Below are positions 2,274 through 59,290 of a stretch of DNA of 64,000 bases, piece by piece. How positions within the stretch are numbered: the first letter of the stretch is position 1; every line of letters starts with the position of its first letter. This stretch comes from Balanoglossus misakiensis (lineage: Eukaryota > Animalia > Hemichordata), in NCBI GenBank assembly GCA_040954595.2, contig CM082582.2, forward strand, positions 4,696,303 to 4,760,302. Reading direction: 5' to 3'. The notes beneath the pieces are model-generated. The model did not search any database. It was given only the letters and a program-made list of their open reading frames with translations, and was not told where the DNA came from. Position numbers and translations under genes: made by a program.

Positions 2274-2945
2274 TATCTGTACGCGGAACACGTGTAATGG
2301 CATAAGACAATTTACCGTGGATTGTAATTTTTATCTTTATATATACATATTAAATAAATGTTACAAACAAAGTAATATAAGTAGTGAAACTTGCATGTCT
2401 ACACACGAATAAATACACATAGACGATCATATGGGTTAAAATGAATTTATTTTTAACATGTTGTAAGAGAGTGTGCTGTATGTGATAAAAAATCACCTAC
2501 ACAGTTCTCATCTACATAACAATAAAACTCCTTCTGTGATTGGTTCACCGCCGACCAGTCTCAAGTCCAGTTGGGGTCGTTAAAATTGCGGCCTTTATGA
2601 CTTCAATGACTAACGAATGAAGTCAATATGACCGCCGTTTCACCCCCCCCCCCCCTCATATGTTACGGGGGAAATCATTACAACTGTACCATGGAATCCT
2701 CCTGTACATTACTTGTACCTTTCACCATGGACTATGCGTTGTGCTTCTTCATCATCTTCGTAGATGTACCGAATATAACAGTCCATGGTGTCAGACTTGT
2801 AGCCACGAATAATGATTACTATCCTTTAGATGGGATTCAGCTATGCGTCTTCTCTGTTACAGCATGTTTCGCCAAAAGTGGTTCGTCAGAGATATTATAT
2901 TAATAATGTGTTAGAATAGCGATACGTGTATAAAGGTATTTCAAA

Positions 2946-5900
2946 ATGCTGAATCCGTTCAGACGGGGTCAACCCAACATGAGCAGGCCTTTGATGACGT
3001 CTGATCTACTAAATTTTGACAATTTTTTTGCAGACGACGGGTCAAACCCGCCCTCTGGTCAGGGTCGATTCGGGGGAACATTCTCATCCAATCCAAACTA
3101 TATCGGACATCGAAACCAGGGTCACACTGCCACAGACACCGATTGGGTTGCCCCGAAAGATGTCTTATTGAGTCAAAGGATATTATACGACTCGATCTCG
3201 CCTGATGAAGGCGTTGTTAAAGTGGGTGGTGATAGGTTGGCTTGGTTTTGTCCCATCGCTATTTTCAATGGAAGACCCAATTTTGCAATACAGGAAATCA
3301 TCGCCCCGGCTTCAGTTGTAGATAAATGTACATCCGCGTCTACTCTGCCAACACTGGGCGTTGAAAAGCAGTCGAGACAGTATACCATGGATATGATGGG
3401 CGTTGCCATCAGTTTAGCTCCAGAGCTTATTCAAAGAGGGACTGTTAACCAGATAAGGAATGCGTACAAACTCAAGGTCAAACAGGTGGTCGACAGTATC
3501 GCAATGACACTACAGGCAGTAGTATACAGTAATGTATTCGGTGGTCCCACACTCGAATACATGGAGTTTCGCAGGATGGGCAACGAAAGAGATGTTTCTA
3601 GAGCTAACCTATTTTATGGTACATATCAGAAAAGAATCGACAATTTTCTACTATGGAACCTGGGGCGAACAAACAAGAAAGCTGTGTTAATTGACTTGGA
3701 TAACTGTTTGAATTACAGTTCGAACAACGACGGTGATGCCGACACAATAATATGTCACCCTGTCGTCGCAGGTGTCTTGAGGGAAACTGTCGCGCCTAAT
3801 CTAGGCACGCAAGAAACTCGAGAAACCTATTTTGTGAATACGTCTGATAATCACATTGTATATAATCACCATCTTCAACCAGACCCAAACCTCTCCCACC
3901 AAGTTCATGCTCCAAATTTAAGAACAATAGTTAATGCAAAAGTTAAGTACATTATTCCCTGTCCGGATGTACGAATAAACAATGTCAAGTCGAATCTCAG
4001 TGAACTCGAGGCCAACTTCAAATCGTTTAACGTTATAGGATATTGTCCATTACTGCAACAAATGGGTAGTCTACTGGACTTCAAACAAACCACATCTGTG
4101 GATTGGAATTCCATATACGTTACCGACTTTGAGAAACGATACGATTCGAGGGTTACCTTGGACGAGGTGATGGAACAGGGTGGTTATTTTGTACCAGAAA
4201 CATACAACGCGAGTTCTTATAACAATCTATTGAGAAGTGCAGACTTTATTGAATTGACGACCATAACACCAGCCGAGTATTATCGATCATGCACAATGCC
4301 TTTCACTGGAAAGGAGAAATCCTGCTTGTTAGATCCTAGTCGAAAAGTGTATTATGACCCGGACAGACAAACATTTCTACCCGCGTTCACTTATGGACAC
4401 AGCAACGTGAGCACCTGTCCCGTCGACAGGGGTGACATTGTCGCCGGTATGACGTTCATGTCCAGGACAATGGTTGGCCTCGGAGAGCATTGCGACGAGG
4501 AATTGTTATGCAACTATGTAAGAGACTGTCTGTCGCTGGAATGGTCTCAGGAGGATTTCGACACCCTTATGCTGTTTGATCGCACACCGTTTCACGAGGC
4601 AATGGGCGATGTGGCAGAAGTTGGCAATACCAGTGATGGGAATGGAAGTGGAGAAGGTTCAGGTAGCCAGGGGACATTGGCCCAAAGGGTTATCAGGGAC
4701 GTCACTTCTCATAGTGGCGCCACACATTTTACCAATTACGATCAATTGCTAATCGTCCGTCATATTTGTCAGCAACGCAGATGCATCGATCGAGAAAGAG
4801 AGGAAGGTGGTCGTGCAGGTGCTACCGCTATGAACGCATTAGACTGCGCAATTGTCAACATTACTATGATTATAGAATGGGTAGACTTACTCTATGACAA
4901 ATATAAAACAGTAACCAAATCCAGGCCAGATACTACACACAGTTGGTTGTTCACGCCATTGGGTCATGAGACTCTACAAAAAGTATTTCACGATGACCGC
5001 CTAGATGAAGCGGATGAGAGAGATTACACGCATATGTTACGCAACAAGGCTGCTCTGTACCACAATGTATTTCTGAGAGCATTTTCGCCGGTTGTATATG
5101 TTGCGGGAAATTCTTCTTTAGACGAAGCTATAGAGGCCGGCATCGTGAACGTTGTGGGGCTGGGTGACATTACACTGAACGAGGAGGTTTATCATTACAA
5201 TTGTAACTTTAGTACATATTCAGCCAGGCGGACATTCAATACTATAGCTGATTCGTCATTCATACGCCCCAAGCAAAGATTTGTTATCTCCGATTTGAGT
5301 CCATTGCACTCATACAACAATGACTCTCCTGTCGATGCGGAACACTTTCTGAACCATAACTATTCCTACAGGTTGTCATGGATCTGCAGTTCGTCATACA
5401 GTCTCATGATCAAGTGTTTTACCATGATTTTCATTAGCATGTTACAAAACCCAACCACTACTAGAGCGTTAGCAAAAGAAGGGATATATTTAAACACGGC
5501 GTTTCTTTTGTTCAGAAATGTGGTACAGCGGACATGTAGCATCGCCATGGCGCGATCTGGTAGAGAGAACAGGTTCTTGTTTTGTGGCAATAGCACTACA
5601 AATAGTTACCATAGTAATGCCACCAGTTATGTGACGAATTGTCGTTTCGAGACAAATATGGTGGACTTCGACCCGATCAATAACACCAGGGTACAGTTGC
5701 ACGTGGGAGGTCTGGGTTATAACAGGGGGATGGGTTCAAAAATTAGGGACCCGTTCACGGAGGGGACGTCCGATGGTAGGGGCGACTTTGTTGTTGTACC
5801 TATGTGTCCGATCGTAGATGTTGGGCTCTGGAATCACATTCAACCTATGAACGGGCGAGTTACGTTCGAAGATGGTAATTCAAACAAAAAGGCCACGAGA

Positions 5901-6413
5901 ATAGACACTGTCCAAGGTATTTACACCAATAATCCGTGGTCAACGGCTGGACTGTCAGAGGCTCAGATTATACATGGTAACATGCGACATCCCTTATGGG
6001 TTCACAATAGTAACAAGCACGGGACGTTCAAGTGTTTCTTACAGGCCAAGACACCGTCACCACAATACCAAGTTGGTATTGATGAATTTTATAGGCCCAT
6101 AGATTCCAATGGTCTACAGAGAGAATCAAACATAGCTGTACAGGGTAGGCAGTACCACAACAACATTGACTGTCCATACGCTTTCAAGACTCTTAACAGA
6201 GGGTTTTATGGAATGGACGAAAATAGTAGCAATCGCTTCCAAGACGCCCTCAACGTCTCCACCGTTCGTGATGACGAAGGTTTACATCTGATGGATCCAA
6301 TCACGATTCAACCGTCTGTCAAGAGAACGGACAAGTACTACGCAGAGACTGGAATCCGTAAGAAATTCAAGCCAGACGACGCGTCGCGTCAACACAGACT
6401 AATACCTATTTAG
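2946..6413 (+). CDS. Putative HK97-fold major capsid protein (mirusvirus/herpesvirus size class)
   Basis: 1155 aa; segment YTMDMMGVAISLAPEL...AYKLKVKQVVDSIAMTLQAVVYSNVF resembles the floor-domain spine helix of mirusvirus MCPs; too long for a double-jelly-roll MCP. Confidence 0.65.
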   Translation: MLNPFRRGQPNMSRPLMTSDLLNFDNFFADDGSNPPSGQGRFGGTFSSNPNYIGHRNQGHTATDTDWVAPKDVLLSQRILYDSISPDEGVVKVGGDRLAWFCPIAIFNGRPNFAIQEIIAPASVVDKCTSASTLPTLGVEKQSRQYTMDMMGVAISLAPELIQRGTVNQIRNAYKLKVKQVVDSIAMTLQAVVYSNVFGGPTLEYMEFRRMGNERDVSRANLFYGTYQKRIDNFLLWNLGRTNKKAVLIDLDNCLNYSSNNDGDADTIICHPVVAGVLRETVAPNLGTQETRETYFVNTSDNHIVYNHHLQPDPNLSHQVHAPNLRTIVNAKVKYIIPCPDVRINNVKSNLSELEANFKSFNVIGYCPLLQQMGSLLDFKQTTSVDWNSIYVTDFEKRYDSRVTLDEVMEQGGYFVPETYNASSYNNLLRSADFIELTTITPAEYYRSCTMPFTGKEKSCLLDPSRKVYYDPDRQTFLPAFTYGHSNVSTCPVDRGDIVAGMTFMSRTMVGLGEHCDEELLCNYVRDCLSLEWSQEDFDTLMLFDRTPFHEAMGDVAEVGNTSDGNGSGEGSGSQGTLAQRVIRDVTSHSGATHFTNYDQLLIVRHICQQRRCIDREREEGGRAGATAMNALDCAIVNITMIIEWVDLLYDKYKTVTKSRPDTTHSWLFTPLGHETLQKVFHDDRLDEADERDYTHMLRNKAALYHNVFLRAFSPVVYVAGNSSLDEAIEAGIVNVVGLGDITLNEEVYHYNCNFSTYSARRTFNTIADSSFIRPKQRFVISDLSPLHSYNNDSPVDAEHFLNHNYSYRLSWICSSSYSLMIKCFTMIFISMLQNPTTTRALAKEGIYLNTAFLLFRNVVQRTCSIAMARSGRENRFLFCGNSTTNSYHSNATSYVTNCRFETNMVDFDPINNTRVQLHVGGLGYNRGMGSKIRDPFTEGTSDGRGDFVVVPMCPIVDVGLWNHIQPMNGRVTFEDGNSNKKATRIDTVQGIYTNNPWSTAGLSEAQIIHGNMRHPLWVHNSNKHGTFKCFLQAKTPSPQYQVGIDEFYRPIDSNGLQRESNIAVQGRQYHNNIDCPYAFKTLNRGFYGMDENSSNRFQDALNVSTVRDDEGLHLMDPITIQPSVKRTDKYYAETGIRKKFKPDDASRQHRLIPI

Positions 6414-6702
6414 ATCGAAGGGATAACTGTCAAATCAGTTTCGTTTAATCCCACCCGCATAGATAGATAAAAGTTTTGTTAAGGCCAGAGAGAAAAAAAA
6501 ATCTTGTTCATCGGATTTTTTGGATGATGGTCCAGGAGCGGCGAGCGAATATTTTTTTTTTTTTTTTTTTTAGGCTCGTGCTCTTTCATTTTGTTACCTG
6601 TATGTGTAGGTCTACCTGTGCTGTACTATATGTAATGTATGACTTATACGGCCGAAATAAAAAGTTGAACCACCAGAAGTGACAACCACAATTTTTTCCG
6701 AG

Positions 6703-6744
6703 CATGGTGTATTATTTGCTGACCTTATATTGGCAAGCTTCACA
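6703..6744 (+). repeat. 42-bp direct repeat, copy 1 (copy 2 at 8043-8084)
   Basis: catggtgtattatttgctgacc(t/c)tatattggcaagcttcaca, 41/42 identical, 1340 bp apart. Confidence 0.95.
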
Positions 6745-6746
6745 AA

Positions 6747-6764
6747 TGGTGACCCCGACGTGAT
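6747..6764 (+). other. tRNA-Trp primer-binding site (18 nt)
   Basis: TGGTGACCCCGACGTGAT is the reverse complement of the 3' 18 nt of mature eukaryotic tRNA-Trp including CCA; it follows ...TTCACA plus AA. Confidence 0.85.
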
Positions 6765-7559
6765 GAATTCTCAAGGCATGAGTGTATTGTATTTACAATC
6801 GTGACGTTACTGGTTACCGACTCACCCTCTCCAGACAAGTGACGCACACGATCACGGCCAGTATGTATGGCAGGAAATCACACGCATTAATTCCCGAATA
6901 AAATTTGGGATAACGATTATTTAAAACGGAATGCTTGTTTTGAGAAAGCTGCCCGTCTCGCGCATAAAAGTTCAACATATTTGAAATATCTTAAATAAAA
7001 GTGAATAAGCTTTCAATATATATATAATGACAACAAAATGGTTTAACACGTAACAAAAATATAAATTCTGTACAAAAATTCATGAATTCTTGTCAATGAA
7101 TCTCAGATATAATAAATAATGTCTATACAGCGTGATTTTGATTGTCTTTTCCATGTAACGTAAATACCACAACGTAGTTCTTCTCCAGGCGATGGGAAAA
7201 TATAGTCTCTTGCCATGGACGAGCGAAATTTAATCTATCAGGGAAATATATCTGCTCACAAATGCGCGCCATATTGGGTGGCAAAGCGCGTCGTCGTCAT
7301 CAAAAGTGGAAATCAACACTAGAACGTGAACATCGCTTTTGATGTCCGTTTCTCGAGTCACAGTTTAAAGTCTGAATACTCCAACACGACATATTAAAGC
7401 TCTGTCTCTTCCACCTCCAGTTTTGATTGTATAAACATCGTCGCGTCCGATGGCGCGATCATTTGGTGCAGCGTTCGGTCGGGTGCGAAATTTTCCCTTC
7501 AAGACGGTGTGATTTTTTTCCTCATACTAATTCTGTGTAACTACGAGTCTTGGCTGTCA

Positions 7560-8045
7560 TTATGAATACGATTTCAGTTCGGCAAAAACTTCTGAAAAAT
7601 ACGTACTCTCCTTGTTTATCCGTAACATGTTGGCACTACAGTCATTTATAATTTTCAGGCTTCTGTCCCCGAATCTGTCTCTGTCGTCTTCAACTAGGAA
7701 CGGTTTTAGCGGATAACTGATCTCGTTGCCCACGTAACTATAGGATAAGTACAGACATGTGAGCACGACGGCTTGTAGCTCAGACTCGGAGGTGATTTTG
7801 TCGTCGACCAAGTCCCGACATAACATGTACACGAAGACAAGGTTTGCCGGGGTGATGAAGGCAATGTCCTGCCACCCTTGCAAGAGCAGGGACCTGTCCA
7901 CTGATCGCAGCCACATTATGGCATCGTTGCCTTCGAAGTCCCGCAAGCAGGAGCATCGCCGACTGAGGAAATTTCCCAGACACTTCAGCAGTTCTCCGGT
8001 GGACGCTTGGATGGTTTTCTTGGTGTTCGGCGTTTTCACCGCCAT
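7560..8045 (-). CDS. CDK5R1: CDK5 activator p35 family protein, activation domain only (p25-like)
   Basis: [43 protein letters not shown] and [21 protein letters not shown] match p35/p39; in-frame TAA three codons upstream of the ATG. Confidence 0.93.
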
Positions 8046-8084
8046 GGTGTATTATTTGCTGACCCTATATTGGCAAGCTTCACA
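8043..8084 (+). repeat. 42-bp direct repeat, copy 2; supplies the leader and ATG of the p25-like ORF
   Basis: Minus strand reads tgtgaagcttgccaatatagggtcagcaaataatacaccATG. Confidence 0.95.
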
Positions 8085-8464
8085 CGATGAACAATTTATT
8101 TTTCTTCCTGGCCTAATTGTCTCTGTACTGTCCGTGTTGCCAGCCAATCCACTCATTTATTCCGCTGCTTTGATATAATTACATGCCTATGCAAATAGGG
8201 AAAGATATACAAATCTACATGCCTTTTTTTTATACACCACATAATACGTAAGTGCATGTATTCCAACTGTAATACATTGGATAGACCGTGTGCGTGCGTG
8301 TCACTATCCTGCGTGTAAAATTGGCGAGTATAATTTTTAGAGACAACTCGGCTTTTGTGGCTCATAATTCTAATTATATCAAAGTACAACGCCAACAGTC
8401 CTATACATCTGGCGTTGACATAACCTATTAGCGTGTGCAGAGAACAGTATTGTTTAGTTGAACC

Positions 8465-8830
8465 ATGAGAATTTTACTCGCTACTTTTATGGGGGTTCTC
8501 TTTATATCATTTATTATCGGTCTTACAAACTTCGTCAAATCTTTACCGTCACATCATAATCCAAAGTCCCCGATAGCGCCACCCTTTTATTTACGGTGGT
8601 GTAAAGATTCCCTCTATACTACGCTGTCAGAGACGACCGAATGGGTACCCGATCAATTAACGAATCTGATGTACAACTCCACCTACACCCCAATGCCATT
8701 GAGGAAAGTGAGCAAAGAAACAGTAGGTTGGATGGCACAGAGGCTTTTAAACATCAAGTCTGCTATTACGCCCAACGCTCCAAAAGCCTTAGTAGGATAC
8801 ACGATAGATATTTCTATACAGGGTCCTTAG
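8465..8830 (+). CDS. Small viral protein with N-terminal signal/membrane anchor
   Basis: Hydrophobic N-terminus MRILLATFMGVLFISFIIGL; good Kozak context. Confidence 0.5.
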   Translation: MRILLATFMGVLFISFIIGLTNFVKSLPSHHNPKSPIAPPFYLRWCKDSLYTTLSETTEWVPDQLTNLMYNSTYTPMPLRKVSKETVGWMAQRLLNIKSAITPNAPKALVGYTIDISIQGP

Positions 8831-9342
8831 TAGTTGTGTTCGGACTAATGCTCGCTTCGCTGACCAACACTCTGTATCTCAACCATCTACATTCCAAGAT
8901 AGCAGACGAACAATGCGAGTTGCCATTCGGGGATGTCATTGATATCAACGAATATGGATACACTGTACACACATTCAATGGTCGTTTGTTGTTAAACAGA
9001 AAAAGTAGCGGGTCACAATTACCAGCAGGCCCTTGTACACACTTCAATTCGTCTGTACAAGAAGCTGTCCAATGTGAATCTGAGATAATGTTATACGATA
9101 TAAAAGGCGAACCATACTATGCTTTGCGCATGTTCAGAGATCAATCAAACCACACATTTTTAGTACAAGGGCCTTATAGTGGCAACGGCGACGAACACCA
9201 AGTCCACATCCGTACCGACCTTCAGTCTGGTAATGTCGTCGTTGGATATGGTCCAGTGCCGCCAAACAAAGTACCAGATGCAGAACTGTATGTAGACGGA
9301 TTTATTTATGCTGCTACCTTGGATAGAAGTAGTTTCAATTAG
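8641..9342 (+). CDS. Putative viral membrane protein (true 5' end uncertain; possible splice acceptor near 8821)
   Basis: 233-aa ORF with TM-like SLVVVFGLMLASL followed by a beta-rich domain; overlaps the previous ORF. Confidence 0.5.
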   Translation: MGTRSINESDVQLHLHPNAIEESEQRNSRLDGTEAFKHQVCYYAQRSKSLSRIHDRYFYTGSLVVVFGLMLASLTNTLYLNHLHSKIADEQCELPFGDVIDINEYGYTVHTFNGRLLLNRKSSGSQLPAGPCTHFNSSVQEAVQCESEIMLYDIKGEPYYALRMFRDQSNHTFLVQGPYSGNGDEHQVHIRTDLQSGNVVVGYGPVPPNKVPDAELYVDGFIYAATLDRSSFN

Positions 9343-9435: not shown

Positions 9436-10014
9436 ATGACAGAACAAACGTCAATGTCGTCTCAATTAGACCCCGAAATGTGTATTTGTCGCATATGCCA
9501 AGAAGGTGAATCGTGTGCTGAAGGCGGCATGCTCTTGATTGCACCTTGTTTATGCAAAGGTAGTCTGAAGTTTGTCCACCGTAGGTGCATCCAAACCTGG
9601 ATAAGAAGCGCTCGTATCAACCGATGTGAAATTTGTAATGCACGCTTCAAAATCATGGTTGAGACTAGACCAATATCAGAATGGACATTGCCGAAGATGA
9701 CCAGAACGATATGGATAAATATTGCACTTGTGTTGTCGTGTACTGTGTGTATATTAGGCATATCATTACACATGCACCTTTTGGTGGAATCCCTATTTCT
9801 AAAGATGGATGCACTGAATACATTTTTCGTGGTGGCTTGCGTGTTGCTGGCACTTATGGCGCTGACTGCATTTGTCCTCCTAGAGACTTTTAGGTGCGTG
9901 GACGTGTATGTGTGGTTAAGAGAGAACAACAGAGAGATAGGTGTTAAGGACTATTGCCCATCTTCTCAACAAATACATGGTGGTGATGAAGACATACGCA
10001 CGAATACGGTGTAG
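9436..10014 (+). CDS. MARCH-type (RING-CH/RINGv) membrane E3 ubiquitin ligase
   Basis: CRIC...LIAPCLCKGSLKFVHRRCIQTWI...CEIC C4HC3 motif followed by two hydrophobic helices. Confidence 0.9.
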   Translation: MTEQTSMSSQLDPEMCICRICQEGESCAEGGMLLIAPCLCKGSLKFVHRRCIQTWIRSARINRCEICNARFKIMVETRPISEWTLPKMTRTIWINIALVLSCTVCILGISLHMHLLVESLFLKMDALNTFFVVACVLLALMALTAFVLLETFRCVDVYVWLRENNREIGVKDYCPSSQQIHGGDEDIRTNTV

Positions 10015-11881: not shown

Positions 11882-14800
11882 ATGCCCACTTGTCTGTGTC
11901 CATCTTCGTATTTATATTGCAATTTTATCACGGGTCAGAGCCTTATAACGTTAAACCTGGTCATGAATGTAGGAAGGCGGCGTGTTTACCTGTTAAAACT
12001 AGAAGTCAAAGGGAGAGGAGTCAACGCATCCGACCTCTGTACCATCTTCGGCAAACTTCCCAATGGGCGTAGTATCGCGTTGGACATACTCGACCCAGTA
12101 TATAGGATTTATTTGAATCCCATCAACGAGGTTAGGGACGAGGAAGAAGTGTGCGCCCTCATTCATCAGTATACCAGCACGTTTTCCAATAACTTCAGCG
12201 TTGGTAAAACGTCAAAGGTAATCGGCAATGGTTACGCGGGGGATTCTCGACTGCCATTTTGGTACGTCGAGTCGTCGGAAAATGCGGTTGTTAAACAGGT
12301 GCAAAAAAATCTACCACGCTCCATTTTCAATTTTTTTATGGACGGCTGTGGAAAGGCCTATTTGGACGTAGCGGCCAATATGAACATCGGGGGTGTTGGT
12401 TGGCACTGGATTAAGTCGTCAAGATACGTAACGGGATGCAAATGCCATTCGTGGTATGGCAAAGAACATGATCATGCCACTGTGAGTGATACCCACTCCA
12501 TTGAGCCCCAACGAGAAGGCGAAAGTAGTCCACCACCACCCATTAACATTCTTCAACTGAAAGTTCATTGCTATCCAGACGGTGTAATCGCATTTATTAC
12601 CTGTTCGTTGTTACGATGGGCAAAAGATTTGACTTGTCTGTTTAATAATACATTCCGTAATTGTACCGTTGTGAAGTTTAGAACCACGATGTATGGTGGT
12701 GATATCTCAAATGTAGTAAATTGCAGGGATGAAGGTAATGTGTTACGCGCATTCACCAAAATCATCACTACCTGTGACTATGACTTTTTATGTGGATATT
12801 TTTTGGAAAAGGAACAGTTAAGAGTGTTAAAGGAGAGAAGTTGTCTTCACGGGCTCAACTTGATAAACCCTTTATTAATCAGGGATATTCGCCACACGCC
12901 TTTCATCAACAGGTGGGATAATGACCCACGCGGTATTGGCTTGATCGACATATGTACTGACAAACACGCGGATGGTCCGGACGCCTACAAATACATCAAA
13001 GACACTGTATTTAACAAAGGCTTCCTGAACACATACTTATCAACTTGCGAAGCGGCTACTATATTCTGTAGCCGACTAACTCACAAGAAGTCAAATGTAG
13101 ATATTATACAGGTACCATACATGGATTTTTTTGAGTCAGCTATGACTCGTAAGGCTAAACAACTTGGGTACGTCTTTGCATGCAGGGAAATCGGAGGAAG
13201 CAATGCGACGACGAGTCATTCTGAATATGAGATTGAAGCAGATCGAGGTCAAGGTTGTCAAGGCGGTTTGTTTCTCACGCCGGTTCAAGGGTTACACGTG
13301 GGCAATGCAGAATTGAGAGATTTTAAAAGCATGTACGGTTCCATAATAGTTGCATTTAACATCGACATCACCACTAGTTTGCAAGAATCACGCGCGGGTT
13401 TATTAAATGATGTAATTGAGATACCAGGTGGCTACAACTTTGTTAGCCCAAATGTTCGGCAGGGGTTACTACCGTCTATAGTTTCAAATCTTGTCGCGCA
13501 ACGGGAACACTTCCAGAAAATTGCCCAGAGCAACAACGAAAACGGGAGTTGGTACGAAATGCAACAAATGGCACGGAAACAATTGATTGTGGGAGCTTAC
13601 GGAGTCAATTTACGTCAGAGTATATTCACAAGCCCGTGTGTGGCTAAGGCCATTACATCCACTGGTAGATTCCTCTTTGAACGGATGAGAGTAACAGCCG
13701 CGTCATTCACCCACCCACATTTATTGACGACACCCAGTGTCCTATTTGGAAATGCAGATTCTCTGATGACCAGTTTCCTGCCAGCACGTGAATTGTCTAA
13801 CGTCGAATGGACCGAAGTTTTCATGGATATTGGACAGTGTTTCCACGACGACATTCGTAAAGTAGTTCAAACCATGGGCGCGAATATAGATGCGCGTTTA
13901 TTGCGGTTTGAGTCGAAAGGGCATGCAAAAATAGTAATGTGTACGAGTCGCAAACAACAGTATGTGATGTGCATTAGGTCAACTTCCAAAAAAGGATGTT
14001 GTTTAGTTGTCAAAGGGTTTGTATCGAACTCTACAAACTGCCATCCCTTGGTGAGAAACGTGGAAAGATGTATGCTGTCGCTCCTGTTTGAAGGTCATGT
14101 ATTGCTTAGGTCTGTAGAATCTGGGCAACTGTCAACACTTCACCCAAGTGAATTGTCCACACGCTCGCAACTGATATATGAAGCGTACGTAGCATCATCT
14201 GGGGTGTGGGTGAAGGTTGGAGATGCTATAAACCAAGATACTGGTGTTAAGAACTCCTTTCGTTTGCGAGATAATTTAGGCAGAGAATTGTGCGAACGCC
14301 TTTTTGACGAGGACGGCATTCCGATACTCACCACTGACAGACTCAGAGAAATAAGGTCTGAAGTGGAGACGGTTGTGTTGTACACGTTAAACAGAGTCAT
14401 AATGTTGCAAGAAGACACGCACCTGTTGATAAAACATTTGCCACCGAATGCTAACCCTGGTGCAAGGTCGACGTTGGAAAAACAATACATGCAATTTCAC
14501 GGGAGATTGCCTTGTGATATATTATATGTGAATACCAAAGAAGATGGACCAATGCACCCTCTTTTGGCTGTCTTCCAACAGAAAACACTAGAGACAGATG
14601 ACACAATTGCATCGATAAAAAAGACCTTTATTGAGGGGGGTGACGAAGGTGGTCCGTATTCCATTATGAATGTTATGAGGCCCAACGTCAAGACATTACA
14701 CGGAGTATTGTGCATGGAAACAGAATCAACTGTGCAAAATCAGTTAAGAGTACAAAGACAGTTTCGGAAACGATTCGATTCTGTCCTCGCTATGTCCTCT

Positions 14801-15166
14801 AAGAAAGTCGAACACCCCGTGTGCAATAATGAAGAGGAATATGTGATGACAAAATTGTTGAATTTTACCAACTGTCCAGATTGTAAAGTTATCACTGTAG
14901 ATCGAGCTAATCGCGACTACAACTACACCGACATGTTCGGAACTGATGCGATAATCCGGAAGCATAATTTGGTTTTATTCAATGTATGCAAACAAAGTTC
15001 GCGTGTGTATTTCATATCCAATTGTAAGGATGTCCAGTGTGTAGGCGTATACAAATTTGCCACCTTGGTGAATCAATTGAAAATACTAACTGCACTTAAA
15101 AACAAGGAAGCAATGGTAAACAAAGTGTCAACTGTTTTGACTGAACGTCTCACGAAATCACAATGA
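11882..15166 (+). CDS. polB: Family B DNA polymerase, delta-like, with divergent catalytic and exonuclease motifs (alternative ATG 11963)
   Basis: Motif A RDFKSMYGSIIVAFNIDITT, motif B QMARKQLIVGAYG, motif C LFGNADSLM, VKGF, C-terminal Cys cluster CPDC...CKDVQC; AATAAA 15258-15263. Confidence 0.88.
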   Translation: MPTCLCPSSYLYCNFITGQSLITLNLVMNVGRRRVYLLKLEVKGRGVNASDLCTIFGKLPNGRSIALDILDPVYRIYLNPINEVRDEEEVCALIHQYTSTFSNNFSVGKTSKVIGNGYAGDSRLPFWYVESSENAVVKQVQKNLPRSIFNFFMDGCGKAYLDVAANMNIGGVGWHWIKSSRYVTGCKCHSWYGKEHDHATVSDTHSIEPQREGESSPPPPINILQLKVHCYPDGVIAFITCSLLRWAKDLTCLFNNTFRNCTVVKFRTTMYGGDISNVVNCRDEGNVLRAFTKIITTCDYDFLCGYFLEKEQLRVLKERSCLHGLNLINPLLIRDIRHTPFINRWDNDPRGIGLIDICTDKHADGPDAYKYIKDTVFNKGFLNTYLSTCEAATIFCSRLTHKKSNVDIIQVPYMDFFESAMTRKAKQLGYVFACREIGGSNATTSHSEYEIEADRGQGCQGGLFLTPVQGLHVGNAELRDFKSMYGSIIVAFNIDITTSLQESRAGLLNDVIEIPGGYNFVSPNVRQGLLPSIVSNLVAQREHFQKIAQSNNENGSWYEMQQMARKQLIVGAYGVNLRQSIFTSPCVAKAITSTGRFLFERMRVTAASFTHPHLLTTPSVLFGNADSLMTSFLPARELSNVEWTEVFMDIGQCFHDDIRKVVQTMGANIDARLLRFESKGHAKIVMCTSRKQQYVMCIRSTSKKGCCLVVKGFVSNSTNCHPLVRNVERCMLSLLFEGHVLLRSVESGQLSTLHPSELSTRSQLIYEAYVASSGVWVKVGDAINQDTGVKNSFRLRDNLGRELCERLFDEDGIPILTTDRLREIRSEVETVVLYTLNRVIMLQEDTHLLIKHLPPNANPGARSTLEKQYMQFHGRLPCDILYVNTKEDGPMHPLLAVFQQKTLETDDTIASIKKTFIEGGDEGGPYSIMNVMRPNVKTLHGVLCMETESTVQNQLRVQRQFRKRFDSVLAMSSKKVEHPVCNNEEEYVMTKLLNFTNCPDCKVITVDRANRDYNYTDMFGTDAIIRKHNLVLFNVCKQSSRVYFISNCKDVQCVGVYKFATLVNQLKILTALKNKEAMVNKVSTVLTERLTKSQ

Positions 15167-26541: not shown

Positions 26542-26629
26542 AAAGATGACACATGTATCGAGGGTAAACCCACAGACTGGAATGTCTCACCTGCGTCCCA
26601 TACGCATTTTTGTCGTATGTTTTGTAAGA

Positions 26630-27140
26630 AGACAGACAGTGTATATTTTGTACTTGACGTTTATTTATCACCTTTTGTTACATTAAAAAATAACATAATT
26701 GTATCGGCAGTATTAACGTCGTCTTGTTTTTTATTGTATGCGGGGGGGGGGGGGGGGTGGTACAACCAAACCACACAGTTTAAAATCCATATCAATTGTA
26801 AGACAACCAGTGTAAATTTTGTACGCTACATTCATTGATCAATATTTGTTGAACAACAAAAAATAACATAATTGTATTGTCTGTCTTATAGTCGCTTTGT
26901 TTTCTATTGTATGTGAAGGGGGGGGGGTACAACCAGACCACACAGTTTAAAATCCATATCAAGTGTAAGACAACCAGTGTAAATTTTGTACGCTACATTC
27001 ATTGATCAATATTTGTTGCATTAAAAAAAGATAACATAATTGTATTGGCTGTCTTAACGTCGTTTTTTTCTGTATTTTACGCGAAGGGGGGGGGGGGAGG
27101 CACAGCCAAACTCTATAGTTAAAACTCAATATCAGTAGTA
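26630..27140. repeat. About 170-bp tandem repeat (roughly 3 units) with poly-G tracts, overlapping the RNR2 3' end
   Basis: taacataattgta at 26691, 26864 and 27032, each followed by a G-run. Confidence 0.85.
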
Positions 27141-28371: not shown

Positions 28372-29185
28372 GGCTGCATTCACAAACACCTCTGGAGGGG
28401 GGGGGGGCGGGAGAATTCAATTTTTTTTACCGCTAATTTTCACATGCCCCCCTTCCGAACTGCCAATATTTTCAAACCCCCCCCCCTTCCGAACTGCCAA
28501 AGTTTTGAAATCCCCCCATTGTCTTTCACAGAGCAAAACACATCACCTATCTATCTTGTAAAAAGAAAAACAGCGCTCCCATGAAAAGAATTTGAAACTG
28601 ATGTTTCCCCTCATCAGTGGGTATTAAAACTGAACATTGTTTTTATTTGTTAAGTACATATATTTGTATTCTGTGTTGGGAGAATTTGTAAACCGAGAAT
28701 TGAAGGGGGTGGGTTTGGGAGGGGGTGTCCCCCTCCCACGTAAGAAAATTTTCTAAAATACAGAGCTCAAAGCTGCATTTTAAGGAACCCGGCAAAAGCA
28801 AATTAACTCAACTACCGGTTTGTTGGGGAGGACAAATTTAACCGTCGCCGAGCAAAGTTATCATGGGGTGGGGGCAAGTCCCCTGACCTGGGTCACTAGA
28901 TAAACCAGTCAATGATTGAAAGGTGTTGATGAATTGAGGGGGTGGGTGTGGCAGGAGGTTTCCCCCTCCCACATTAGAAAATTTTGTAAAATAAAGGGCG
29001 CGAAACTGCATTTTTGTGGACTCAAAATAAATATTTAGTCGTCAAAGTTTTCAAGTCCCCCCCCCCTTTCAGTCCCTAAATTATTTCAAACCCCCCCCCC
29101 TCACATACCCTCAATTTTTTCAAACCCCCCCCCTTAATTCTCCTGCCCCCCCCCCCCCCCTCCAGAGGTGTTTGTGAATGCAGTC
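28372..29185. mobile_element. Non-autonomous PIF/Harbinger-type MITE inserted in the viral region
   Basis: TIRs ggctgcattcacaaacacctctggaggg... / ...ccctccagaggtgtttgtgaatgcagtc, TTA on both sides (28369-28371, 29186-29188). Confidence 0.88.
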
Positions 29186-32567: not shown

Positions 32568-32710
32568 TTCGTGTAATAATTGTGCAATGCACCAACTTGT
32601 TTAATATGTATCTTTATGTTTGTTGCACTCGGATGTAAAAAAAAGTCCACTCATTACACTTCTTACATACTGCATTCTAACGCGCACACTGCGTGTGTTT
32701 ATGGTCACGT

Positions 32711-32965
32711 CGCATTTAATTCATCATTATATTAATTGTAGTTGACAAAAGGACTTGAATAAAAAACAAATACGCTCATGACGTATCCTTACATACCAGA
32801 CTCTAATGCATATGCTATGTTTGAGCGCGTACATGACGCATTTAATTCATCATTATATTAATTGTAGTTGTCAAAAGGAATTTAATAAAAAAAACAAATA
32901 CGCTCATGACATTTCCTTACATACCAGACTCTAACGCATATGCTATGTTTGAGCGCGTACATGAC
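32711..32965. repeat. 126-bp AT-rich tandem duplication
   Basis: cgcatttaattcatcattatattaattgtagttg at 32711 and 32837. Confidence 0.9.
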
Positions 32966-56757: not shown

Positions 56758-59290
56758 CTTTAAAATGGTTTACCAAGTTTCACGTTTTAGGACTATACTA
56801 TGTGAGATCAATTCAAAAACACTTTGATGACATGGTTTCCTTTTCGAGTGTTTTACAGTATAACTTTCCCATTATAGCTTTGACTGAAACTTGGTTACAT
56901 AATGAAATGGATTGTTATCTTTACAAATTACCATATTACTCACTTATCACCTCAAATCGTAAGGTGGTGGAGCTGCTATGTACGTTCATGATTCTGTCTC
57001 ATATACACCTGTCACAGCGCTTGAAATTGCTCACTGTGAGTCGCTATTCATTGAGACGAGCTCGTTGAGAAGGAAACTGATAATTTGTGTTGTCTACAGG
57101 AAGCATAATACCTCAACACATGAATTTCTAGAGAGTTTTGAAAGGTGCCTTGACACCATTTCTTCTATGAACAGGCAGTGTATAGTACTGGGCGATTTTA
57201 ACATCGATTTAGGCTGTACCAACTCTATCAATACTAGCTATCTTTCCCTTCTCAACAGCTATAATTTTGTACAGATGATTGACACGCCATCTCGTAAGAC
57301 TCAAATTTCTAGCACTGTTATTGACCATATCATAACAAACATTAACGATTTCTTCATTGACTGTGGCAGTGTTTTAACTGATATAAGTGATCATTTCCCA
57401 ATATTTGTAACAATCAAGAATTTTGAACATGTTTTGCCAGCAATTCTTCGTACAGATGTGATTTTAGTAATTACAATTGTCAATCTTTCCTTTCTGATCT
57501 GAGGAATGTTTCCTGGCAGCCGGTTAACAACTGAACCGATCCGAATGATGCATATACATGTACTACATTTTATAACATATTTCGTAATATTAGCAAACAG
57601 CGTGTTCCTGTCAAAAAGTATAAATCGAACGGTAATCATTTGCAAACCATGGTTGTCCAGAGGCCTTCTGAGATCAATCAAAACAAAAAATAAGTTATTT
57701 TCTCGAATGAAAAAATCAAATCAGAATGTTTCCTTCAGGAATGAGTACAATCGGTATCGCAACATTCTGACAAGGTGTCTGAGATTAGCCAAAAAACAGT
57801 ACTATGCCATGAAGTTTAAGTCTGTTGCAGGTAATCCTCGTAAAATCTGGTAAACTGTTTTTTTTCCTGATTCCCTTAAATTTACAAAAAATACCCCAGT
57901 TTATAAGAAAGGTTCTTGTTCTGATGTCAGCAATACTAGTATAGGCCCATTTCCATTCTACCAGTCATAAGTAAAATTGTAGAATCTGTTGTCAAAAAAC
58001 TCATCTCATTTCTCGACAAATTTAGCATTCTCTCTGACACACAGTATGGGTTTCGAAAACTGTATAGTACAAAACTTGCATCAGCAGATCAGATATTATA
58101 GACAGCATGGACCATGGTTTTACTTCACTAGGAATTTTTATTTACTTTAAAAAAGCATTTGACACAATAGACCATAGCATTCTTCTGCACAAACTCTCAC
58201 ACTATGGTATCAGAGGCCTTCCATTTAATTGGTTTACAAGTTATCTTCATAATCGTCATCAGGTGGTTGCCGTTGACAAGAGTATTTCAGAACCAAAGAT
58301 TGTAAAATGTGGAATACCACAAGGTTCTATCCTTGGTCCACTTCTGTTCCTCATTTATATTAATGATATTGTTCAATAAACCAGCACATTAGATTTTAAA
58401 CTTTTTGCAGATGATACAAGTTTGTTTAAATGTACAAGCTGCAATGTCAACTTTAATCAAATTAACAGTGATTTTAAGTTGGTCAAAGATTGGTGTGATG
58501 CCCATAAATTGACCATTAACGCTGGTAAAACTAACTATATGTTATTGAATTCCATTCATAAACCAGCTCGTGTTCAAGGTCAACTAGAAATTGACAGTTC
58601 TTTTGTTGAGAATGTCTCTTCCACTACTTACCTTGGTGTCACCATTGACTGCTCTGAGGTGGAAATCGCACATTGAGAAAGTCAGAAGCACTATCAGCCC
58701 AATTGTTGGAGTTATTTCAAAAATACGTCACTTTGTACCTAAGTCCACCTTGCTTTTACTTTACAACTCCTTAATTTTACCACACTTAATGTATTGTATT
58801 GAAATATGGGGACATGCTTATTATACACCCCTGCAATCACTTTTTCGTCTTCAGAAAAAATTGGTTCGTCTGATTACCTTTTCATGCTACAATGCTCAAT
58901 CAGCCCCTCTGTTTTGGCAACTCAGCATATTGAATGTATATAATCTTTGTAAACTTCAGACTTGTATGTTCATTTATGACCTGGACCATCATCACTAGGC
59001 TCGTCACCTTGATCAGTATTTCCAAGGTGTCTCACCACATACATATCCAACATCATTTAGTACGAACAGGAACTTAAAAATCCCAAAGGTTAACTTGACT
59101 ACTTCTCAGCAGAATTTTAAGTATGCATCTGCAACTCCATTCCACACACTTTAAAGAATACACACTGCAGAAACAGATTTTAAAAAGAGCTCAAAAAATA
59201 TCTGCTACATCTTCAGTGACAACTTTTTTCAATATAGTCATCCCATTGTAATGTACTCCTTCGCAACAAATGCCTTCAACTCACCAGTAT

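Follow-up and report, generated by a model that had tools for sequence, protein, structure and literature searches.

A host p35 fragment between LTR-derived repeats in a virus-like block of the Balanoglossus misakiensis genome: the probable trace of a mis-primed reverse transcription

How did part of a host CDK5 activator gene come to lie, in antisense, between two short direct repeats behind a capsid-like gene, with the complement of a tRNA end at its border, and does it serve there as a viral gene? An earlier note, made from the letters of the window (the whole stretch of 64,000 nucleotides analysed here), had proposed a tRNA-primed, LTR-type capture of the host gene into a DNA virus or, alternatively, a micro-LTR cassette. 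In our analysis, the cassette probably arose when a host LTR retrotransposon's reverse transcriptase was mis-primed on p35 mRNA, and it now lies in a miniature DNA transposon (MITE) within a likely integrated virus. The features on which this reading rests are collected in Table 1.

Table 1. Features of the cassette and its surroundings; positions are those of the window.
Feature	Position	Strand	Remarks
Major capsid protein-like ORF (HK97-like), 1155 aa	2946-6413	+	Cassette starts 70 bp past the stop
Left TAA target-site duplication	6480-6482		From the sequence; same flank motif at other host copies (listed loose ends)
Putative MITE, 5' part	6483-6591	+	T run follows the left TIR (about 6483-6513); position of the inner edge uncertain
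LTR-like repeat, about 153 bp	6592-6744	+	TG...CA ends; AATAAA at 6656; 5' edge between 6584 and 6592
Left 42-bp repeat	6703-6744	+	Apparently the last 42 bp (U5 side) of the LTR of about 153 bp
Spacer, 2 nt, from LTR end to PBS	6745-6746	+
Primer-binding site (PBS), 18 nt	6747-6764	+	Complement of the tRNA-Trp 3' end, including CCA
Microhomology, 8 nt	6757-6764	+	PBS 3' end equal to host p35 3'UTR; putative left template-switch point
Host p35/CDK5R1 fragment	6757-8042	-	On the strand opposite to the LTR: about 800 nt of 3'UTR, 483 nt of CDS; host-type contig match
p25-like ORF, 161 aa	7560-8045	-	CDK5-binding cyclin-fold core behind an in-frame ATG from the LTR; PF03261
Right 42-bp repeat	8043-8084	+	Apparently a truncated LTR with the same terminal CA; source of the minus-strand ATG
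Putative MITE, right TIR	8085-8113	+	Inverted repeat, depth, loose ends behind 8114
Right TAA target-site duplication	8114-8116		From the sequence
Viral-type family B DNA polymerase	11882-15166	+	PF00136, E 3.5e-20

Repeats, primer-binding site and captured host sequence

The two 42-bp direct repeats described in the earlier note (6703-6744 and 8043-8084) were borne out: they were identical at 41 of 42 bases, spaced 1340 bp apart, and paired by blastn with an E value of 3.7e-14. Their longest exact repeat was 22 nt (vs. a maximum of 18 nt in 200 shuffles) and the 42-mer occurred only twice in the 64 kb. The exact 18-nt complement of tRNA-Trp also held, being the sole match in the window even when 3 mismatches were allowed (shuffle mean 0.03; exact-match expectation 1.9e-6). 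A human tRNA-Trp oligonucleotide starts with this 18-mer and parts from the window at base 19 (10.1101/400127), and the 18-mer is described as the primer of chicken endogenous proviruses (avian leukosis/EAV; PMC5029493). All nine viral contigs containing the 18-mer had it as a retroviral PBS (at 102-119 in L012, for example), eight of them in the avian leukosis-type order of CA, two nucleotides and PBS, an arrangement like that of the window. A scan of the window and of the nine viral PBS loci with ARAGORN turned up no tRNA gene, and Rfam gave no matches within 6000-9000. The absence of a polypurine tract (PPT) and of a clean target-site duplication (TSD), already noticed earlier, was confirmed: the longest purine run was 7 in the 80 nt upstream of the right repeat, no run of at least 9 was present across 6765-8042, and none of the 3 candidates from a TSD scan had its right end at 8084 or a plausible LTR start.

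The locus was compared with contigs from three runs (X1, X2 and X3) of one sample of one study, possibly the source of the window itself, aligned over 6200-8700 (76, 74 and 3 records); the results rest on the 19 of 153 pieces and 17 of 48 loose ends that were listed. Among the listed pieces, diverged host copies covered 6593-6744 (X1 record 2) and 6584-6696 (X2 record 11) and then ran into unlike flanks, so that the left 42-mer appears to be the 3' end of an LTR of about 153 bp and not, as had been assumed, a whole repeat unit. A loose end among the contigs listed also left the LTR-like sequence behind 6746, and the sequence that flanks the insert belonged to a multicopy LTR-like family with a PBS. 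Two contigs (X1 record 3 and X2 record 12) had their first base at 6735; for a k=31 graph, this implies a second path that departs right after base 18 of the PBS; judging from the contig ends, this path is most simply the interior of the donor element itself. When the ends of 15 of the 19 listed pieces were read in this way (X2 record 11 and X3 records 17-19 were left out), 14 of 28 internal ends fell where a listed variant or junction would put them (in one case by coincidence); the other ends either had no explanation or were the junctions under discussion. Since this geometry suggests a donor family with an 18-nt PBS of its own, the earlier argument that a match of exactly 18 nt marks the copying of a tRNA is weakened as proof for the capture event itself.

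The interval 6757-8042 was matched by a 2725-nt contig (X3 record 19), by its sequence the host p35 gene, with 98.1% identity (25 other letters and 44 gap letters), and the contig departed from the window at both ends of this interval. The segment 6765-7559, which the earlier note had proposed to compare with the host p35 3'UTR, matched within this alignment. Past 8042, the host contig read on for ten further in-frame, p35-like codons (the "IKKS" region before the core; a loose end, read by eye), so the ATG of the window ORF comes from the right repeat, as had been claimed, and the window copy appears to begin in the middle of the CDS. At the left junction, the microhomology was exactly the last 8 bases of the PBS (P about 1.3e-5 at the given junction), and there was no poly(A) where the 3'UTR meets the PBS; at the right junction, no clear microhomology was seen, the upstream similarity being at chance level (3131 of 5000 shuffles). 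The layout given earlier (repeat, 2 nt, PBS, about 1.3 kb with the antisense ORF, repeat) was correct in its order, but had missed both the 8-nt microhomology and the enclosing MITE.

No joint between host-type contigs and the insert was among those listed, so there was no lost intron to serve as proof of an RNA template; the host gene may have no intron in this interval. Joints across the cassette were likewise absent from the list, but rare variants are lost from such contigs, and an empty viral allele is therefore possible. At 6611 and 7367, the letter in the window differed from all covering contigs (possible errors or private variants in the window assembly).

The MITE shell and the viral block

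The cassette was enclosed by a pair of terminal inverted repeats (TIRs) with an inverted-repeat score of 43 (vs. a shuffle maximum of 33; 0 of 5000 shuffles), and the TAA duplication around it was likewise significant. Contig depth was high and many unlike flanks were present at 6482-6524 and 8085-8114, with very high depth at 8048-8131; together, these signs identify 6483-8113 as a putative multicopy non-autonomous DNA transposon (MITE) around the whole cassette. We take the TIRs, the TAA duplication and the many copies to fit a PIF/Harbinger-like MITE, a type with a 3-bp TWA duplication and no coding capacity. No other copy was found in the window. Two long contigs (X1 records 1 and 8; 12,197 and 10,806 nt) ran from viral sequence into both TIRs, so the virus/TIR junctions are real in that assembly. 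Depth in X1 was 135-152 for the viral flanks and 59.6 for the host-type p35 piece, depth not being equated with copy number; X3 did not cover the viral flanks, and no weight was given to this gap. Lacking a PPT, the cassette would be a dead end for retrotransposition, though as a MITE it may be able to move.

The first 33,000 or so bases contained dense long ORFs, including those for the family B polymerase (only 3 relatives at E<=1e-30), the small chain of ribonucleotide reductase and a RINGv protein. For the capsid-like ORF, residues 60-420 gave ESM Atlas feature hits of 0.96 to HK97-type capsid clusters, which is a lead; its structure prediction had a pLDDT of 27.7, no PDB sequence was hit, and 57 pattern hits in IMG/VR yielded 0 confirmed relatives. 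Beyond about 35 kb, the DNA was host-like, with segmental duplicates, satellites, and Macro and RING/Deltex ORFs. The viral block is likely to be an undescribed herpes- or mirus-like virus integrated in the animal genome.

A metagenome contig (L021) contained homologues of the ORFs at 17-1318, 1353-2273 and 2946-6413 in conserved order, with a capsid-like protein 51% identical to that of the window and the next ORF 40 bp past the capsid gene. It had no cassette: p25 gave no tblastn hit and there was no credible blastn hit. The earlier proposal to look for an empty site in a related virus thus led to an insert-free copy, in which neither the 42-bp repeat nor p25 was found. Entry of the cassette into an active virus and entry into an already integrated copy have roughly even odds.

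Several other features of the window were observed. Only 2 homologues of the capsid-like ORF were found (51% and 62%), yet the ORFs of the viral block were long and open. The gap before the capsid-like gene was 672 bp in the window (2274-2945) vs. 18 bp in L021 (8211-8228), possibly a second insertion. The RINGv (MARCH-like) membrane E3 ligase ORF at 9436-10014 is probably another host-derived gene, and the overlapping ORFs at 8465-8830 and 8641-9342, in different frames and with no Pfam match, may be one frameshifted gene. Intergenic tandem repeats were present in or at the edge of the viral block: 26629-27111 (167 bp), 28435-29133 (34 bp) and 32662-32965 (128 bp). In the host-like part, 35400-56700 was a segmental triplication of about 9 kb (79-100% identity) beside the viral block, with Macro-domain and RING/Deltex C-terminal ORFs (DTX3L/PARP-like), and short ORFs at 56978-58998 resembled, by eye, fragments of a non-LTR retrotransposon endonuclease/reverse transcriptase.

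Origin of the cassette

In plus-strand strong-stop DNA, the entire LTR is followed by the 2-nt spacer and by 18 nt for which the tRNA primer was the template. In the reading that we prefer, this DNA would have been synthesised normally. When it came to the second strand transfer, however, its 8 terminal bases would have paired not with the minus strand of the element itself but with 8 matching nt of the 3'UTR in a p35 mRNA packaged alongside. The reverse transcriptase would then have copied the mRNA from 3' to 5' over about 1.28 kb, which would account for the antisense insert, and would have returned to the minus-strand DNA 42 nt before the end of U5, running off at the CA of the LTR; this jump back to the U5 region would have placed the LTR-derived ATG in frame with the CDK5-binding core. 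The LTR unit has no TSD, so entry by integrase is unsupported; the product would have entered the PIF/Harbinger-like MITE with no visible TSD, by the patching of a break or with a later deletion. Finally, either the MITE with its cassette or the cDNA, entering a resident MITE, would have landed behind the capsid gene.

A plus-strand jump of this kind predicts a whole left LTR, a right end at the same CA, no PPT and an antisense insert, all four of which were present, and it explains the switch at base 18 of the PBS. Microsimilarity also drives LTR-mediated retroposition elsewhere, at 25 of 29 junctions with a median of 6 bp (PMC5131818). The tRNA-Trp-primed, LTR-type capture of host p35 proposed in the earlier note is thus supported by the 98% match to a host contig, the multicopy LTR-like repeats and the microhomology at the end of the PBS.

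The same structure could have been built at the DNA level, by Pack-TIR-type gap filling: a break in the MITE would be repaired through template switches to the LTR, to the p35 gene and back to the LTR, with no reverse transcription of mRNA. The enclosing TIRs and TAA duplication, the LTR unit without TSD and the lack of visible intron loss would all suit this explanation, and gap filling with microhomology is the main origin of single-copy Pack-TIRs in animals (PMC8277862). It is nevertheless unlikely, because the first switch must hit the last base of the PBS by chance within an element of several kb, and the copy must begin at the first bases of the LTR and end at its terminal CA, which are the natural ends of a reverse-transcription intermediate. 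A rather improbable origin is canonical minus-strand LTR retroposition on an antisense or read-through p35 transcript, with the PPT and most of the 3' LTR lost afterwards: it leaves the switch at PBS base 18 to a chance breakpoint, and requires not only that p35 be transcribed in antisense but also that a second deletion should have removed PPT and U3 so precisely as to spare the in-frame ATG, even though the mechanism is known, with microsimilarity switches and partial mRNAs as the interior (PMC5131818), and would leave LTR-derived ends on both sides of the insert.

A still mobile, non-autonomous element with 42-bp LTRs carrying p25, the micro-LTR cassette of the earlier note, is very improbable. 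The 41/42 direct repeats with internal TGT and terminal ACA and the perfect PBS had spoken for it; this and any TRIM are largely refuted by LTR lengths of about 153 bp on the left (where the host copies lengthen the repeat) vs. 42 bp on the right and by the lack of PPT and TSD, and the similarity ends sharply at 6703/8043 because host p35 sequence starts there. That the 42-mer is a duplicated viral promoter motif beside an incidental tRNA match, named in the earlier note as a refuting case, was itself refuted: an AT-rich box does lie on the minus strand some 25-30 nt before the ATG, but the 42-mer is part of a host repeat, occurs twice only in the window and not in the related virus, and the 18-mer would hardly arise by chance. 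The occurrence of a 17-nt part of the repeat in 11 viral contigs was judged a chance match, since at most 9 of 25 upstream bases were shared.

Known capture routes and the p25-like reading frame

The plus-strand transfer mis-primed on p35 mRNA, which remains the preferred origin, has a forerunner in the work of Dunn, Olsen and Swanstrom, who in 1992 reportedly described cellular inserts beside LTR/PBS sequence in unintegrated avian retroviral DNA, formed by aberrant plus-strand transfer; those were reportedly transient intermediates in cell culture, whereas the window cassette is fixed in a genome and creates an ORF. LINE-1-mediated capture of host genes by poxviruses is said to have been described by Rahman et al. 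in 2022. It was shown experimentally by Fixsen et al. (2022, PMC9578705), and its marks are poly(A) at the end of the copy and TSDs of 8-20 bp that consist of viral sequence. There, as proposed for the window, a retrotransposon reverse transcriptase supplied a large DNA virus with a host gene copy, but the flanks in the window are LTR sequence and a PBS and the 3'UTR junction has no poly(A); a capture of LINE-1 type was rejected on these grounds.

Close to the cassette among described systems is metazoan LTR-mediated retroposition (Tan et al. 2016, PMC5131818), where part of a host mRNA likewise replaces the interior of the element, a short microsimilarity marks the switch (in the window, at the left junction) and an in-frame protein may result. 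The window differs from it in the switch at the last PBS base, the antisense insert, the 42-bp 3' LTR, the lack of PPT and TSD, and the nesting in a MITE inside a DNA virus; the main text of that paper contains neither "PBS" nor "DNA virus". Pack-TIRs (Tan et al. 2021, PMC8277862) are similar in carrying host sequence between TIRs with a TSD, whereas the cargo in the window is an LTR-PBS-mRNA chimera in a viral host element. The cassette has partial host transcript sequence in place of the element interior (98% host match) and lacks the two complete LTRs, PPT and 4-6-bp TSD of the canonical class, its 3' LTR being only 42 bp: it resembles an LTR-mediated retrocopy in its workings, is not a canonical member, and is a new form of LTR-mediated retroposition. 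Among the titles and abstract openings covered by our literature search, with subscription papers outside its scope, none dealt with LTR-mediated capture into a large DNA virus or with a viral CDK5 activator.

The locus appears to preserve the footprint of a capture other than by LINE-1; it has diverged by about 2%, and each of its two junctions can be read by comparison with the host gene. A second strand transfer gone astray would yield antisense, PPT-less captures and can make a start codon from LTR sequence, and its signature (LTR, 2 nt, 18-nt PBS, and antisense mRNA with terminal microhomology) is searchable in any genome.

The ORF at 7560-8045 (minus strand), with its start ATG inside the right repeat, matched the CDK5_activator family (PF03261) with an E value of 3.4e-87 and was about 70% identical to invertebrate p35 proteins. 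It lacked the p35 N-terminus, presumably the part with the myristoylation site and the degron. It spanned residues 1-146 of the 147-aa chain in PDB 1h4l, the whole crystallised CDK5-binding core, and its model had a mean pLDDT of 86.6, though this was alignment-driven. If expressed, it would be a p25-like, N-terminally truncated CDK5 activator. The in-frame fusion to an ATG is suggestive and could be due to chance. An upstream ORF of 34 codons in the same frame stopped just before this ATG, and no canonical AATAAA was present on the sense strand of the captured UTR, where there was only ATTAAA, at 7229 and 6444.

Compared with the host-type contig, the CDS had 8 differences, 4 of them synonymous and 4 nonsynonymous, over about 108 synonymous and 372 nonsynonymous sites; the synonymous excess was not significant (P 0.083) and may reflect host alleles. 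Two of the nonsynonymous changes set the window copy against conserved columns: codon 126, at which 120 of 120 homologues agree, and codon 105, at which 108 of 120 do. They are not assembly errors, since X1 record 5 has the same letters. Viral relatives were not recovered: 2 pattern hits in IMG/VR gave 0 confirmed, the p25 model had 0 matches in BFVD at E<=0.001 (generic cyclin folds at 9-16% identity came closest), and no viral CDK5 activator was named among the best 120 of 454 homologues. It is likelier that the ORF is a passenger in incipient decay than that it is a viral gene under selection.

As to the earlier proposal of capture into a DNA virus, an adaptive gain is unproven: the cassette lies inside a host MITE, its entry may postdate endogenisation, and one of its substitutions changes an invariant residue. 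It is doubtful, if conceivable, that a herpes- or mirus-like virus gained and expressed the first viral p25-like CDK5 activator by LTR mis-priming, MITE packaging and transposition, before or across its endogenisation. If it did, LTR reverse transcriptase and DNA transposons together would, alongside LINE-1, be a second way in which large DNA viruses capture host genes. An active ORF would be a deregulated CDK5 activator borne by a virus; with an inactive one, the locus would still record, as few natural loci do, an error of reverse transcription that became fixed in a genome. Like p25 (PDB 1ung and 1h4l), the ORF holds the entire binding core without the N-terminal part, and it differs from the p25 released by calpain cleavage in having been shortened, as proposed here, by template switching, and in its substitution at an otherwise invariant residue.
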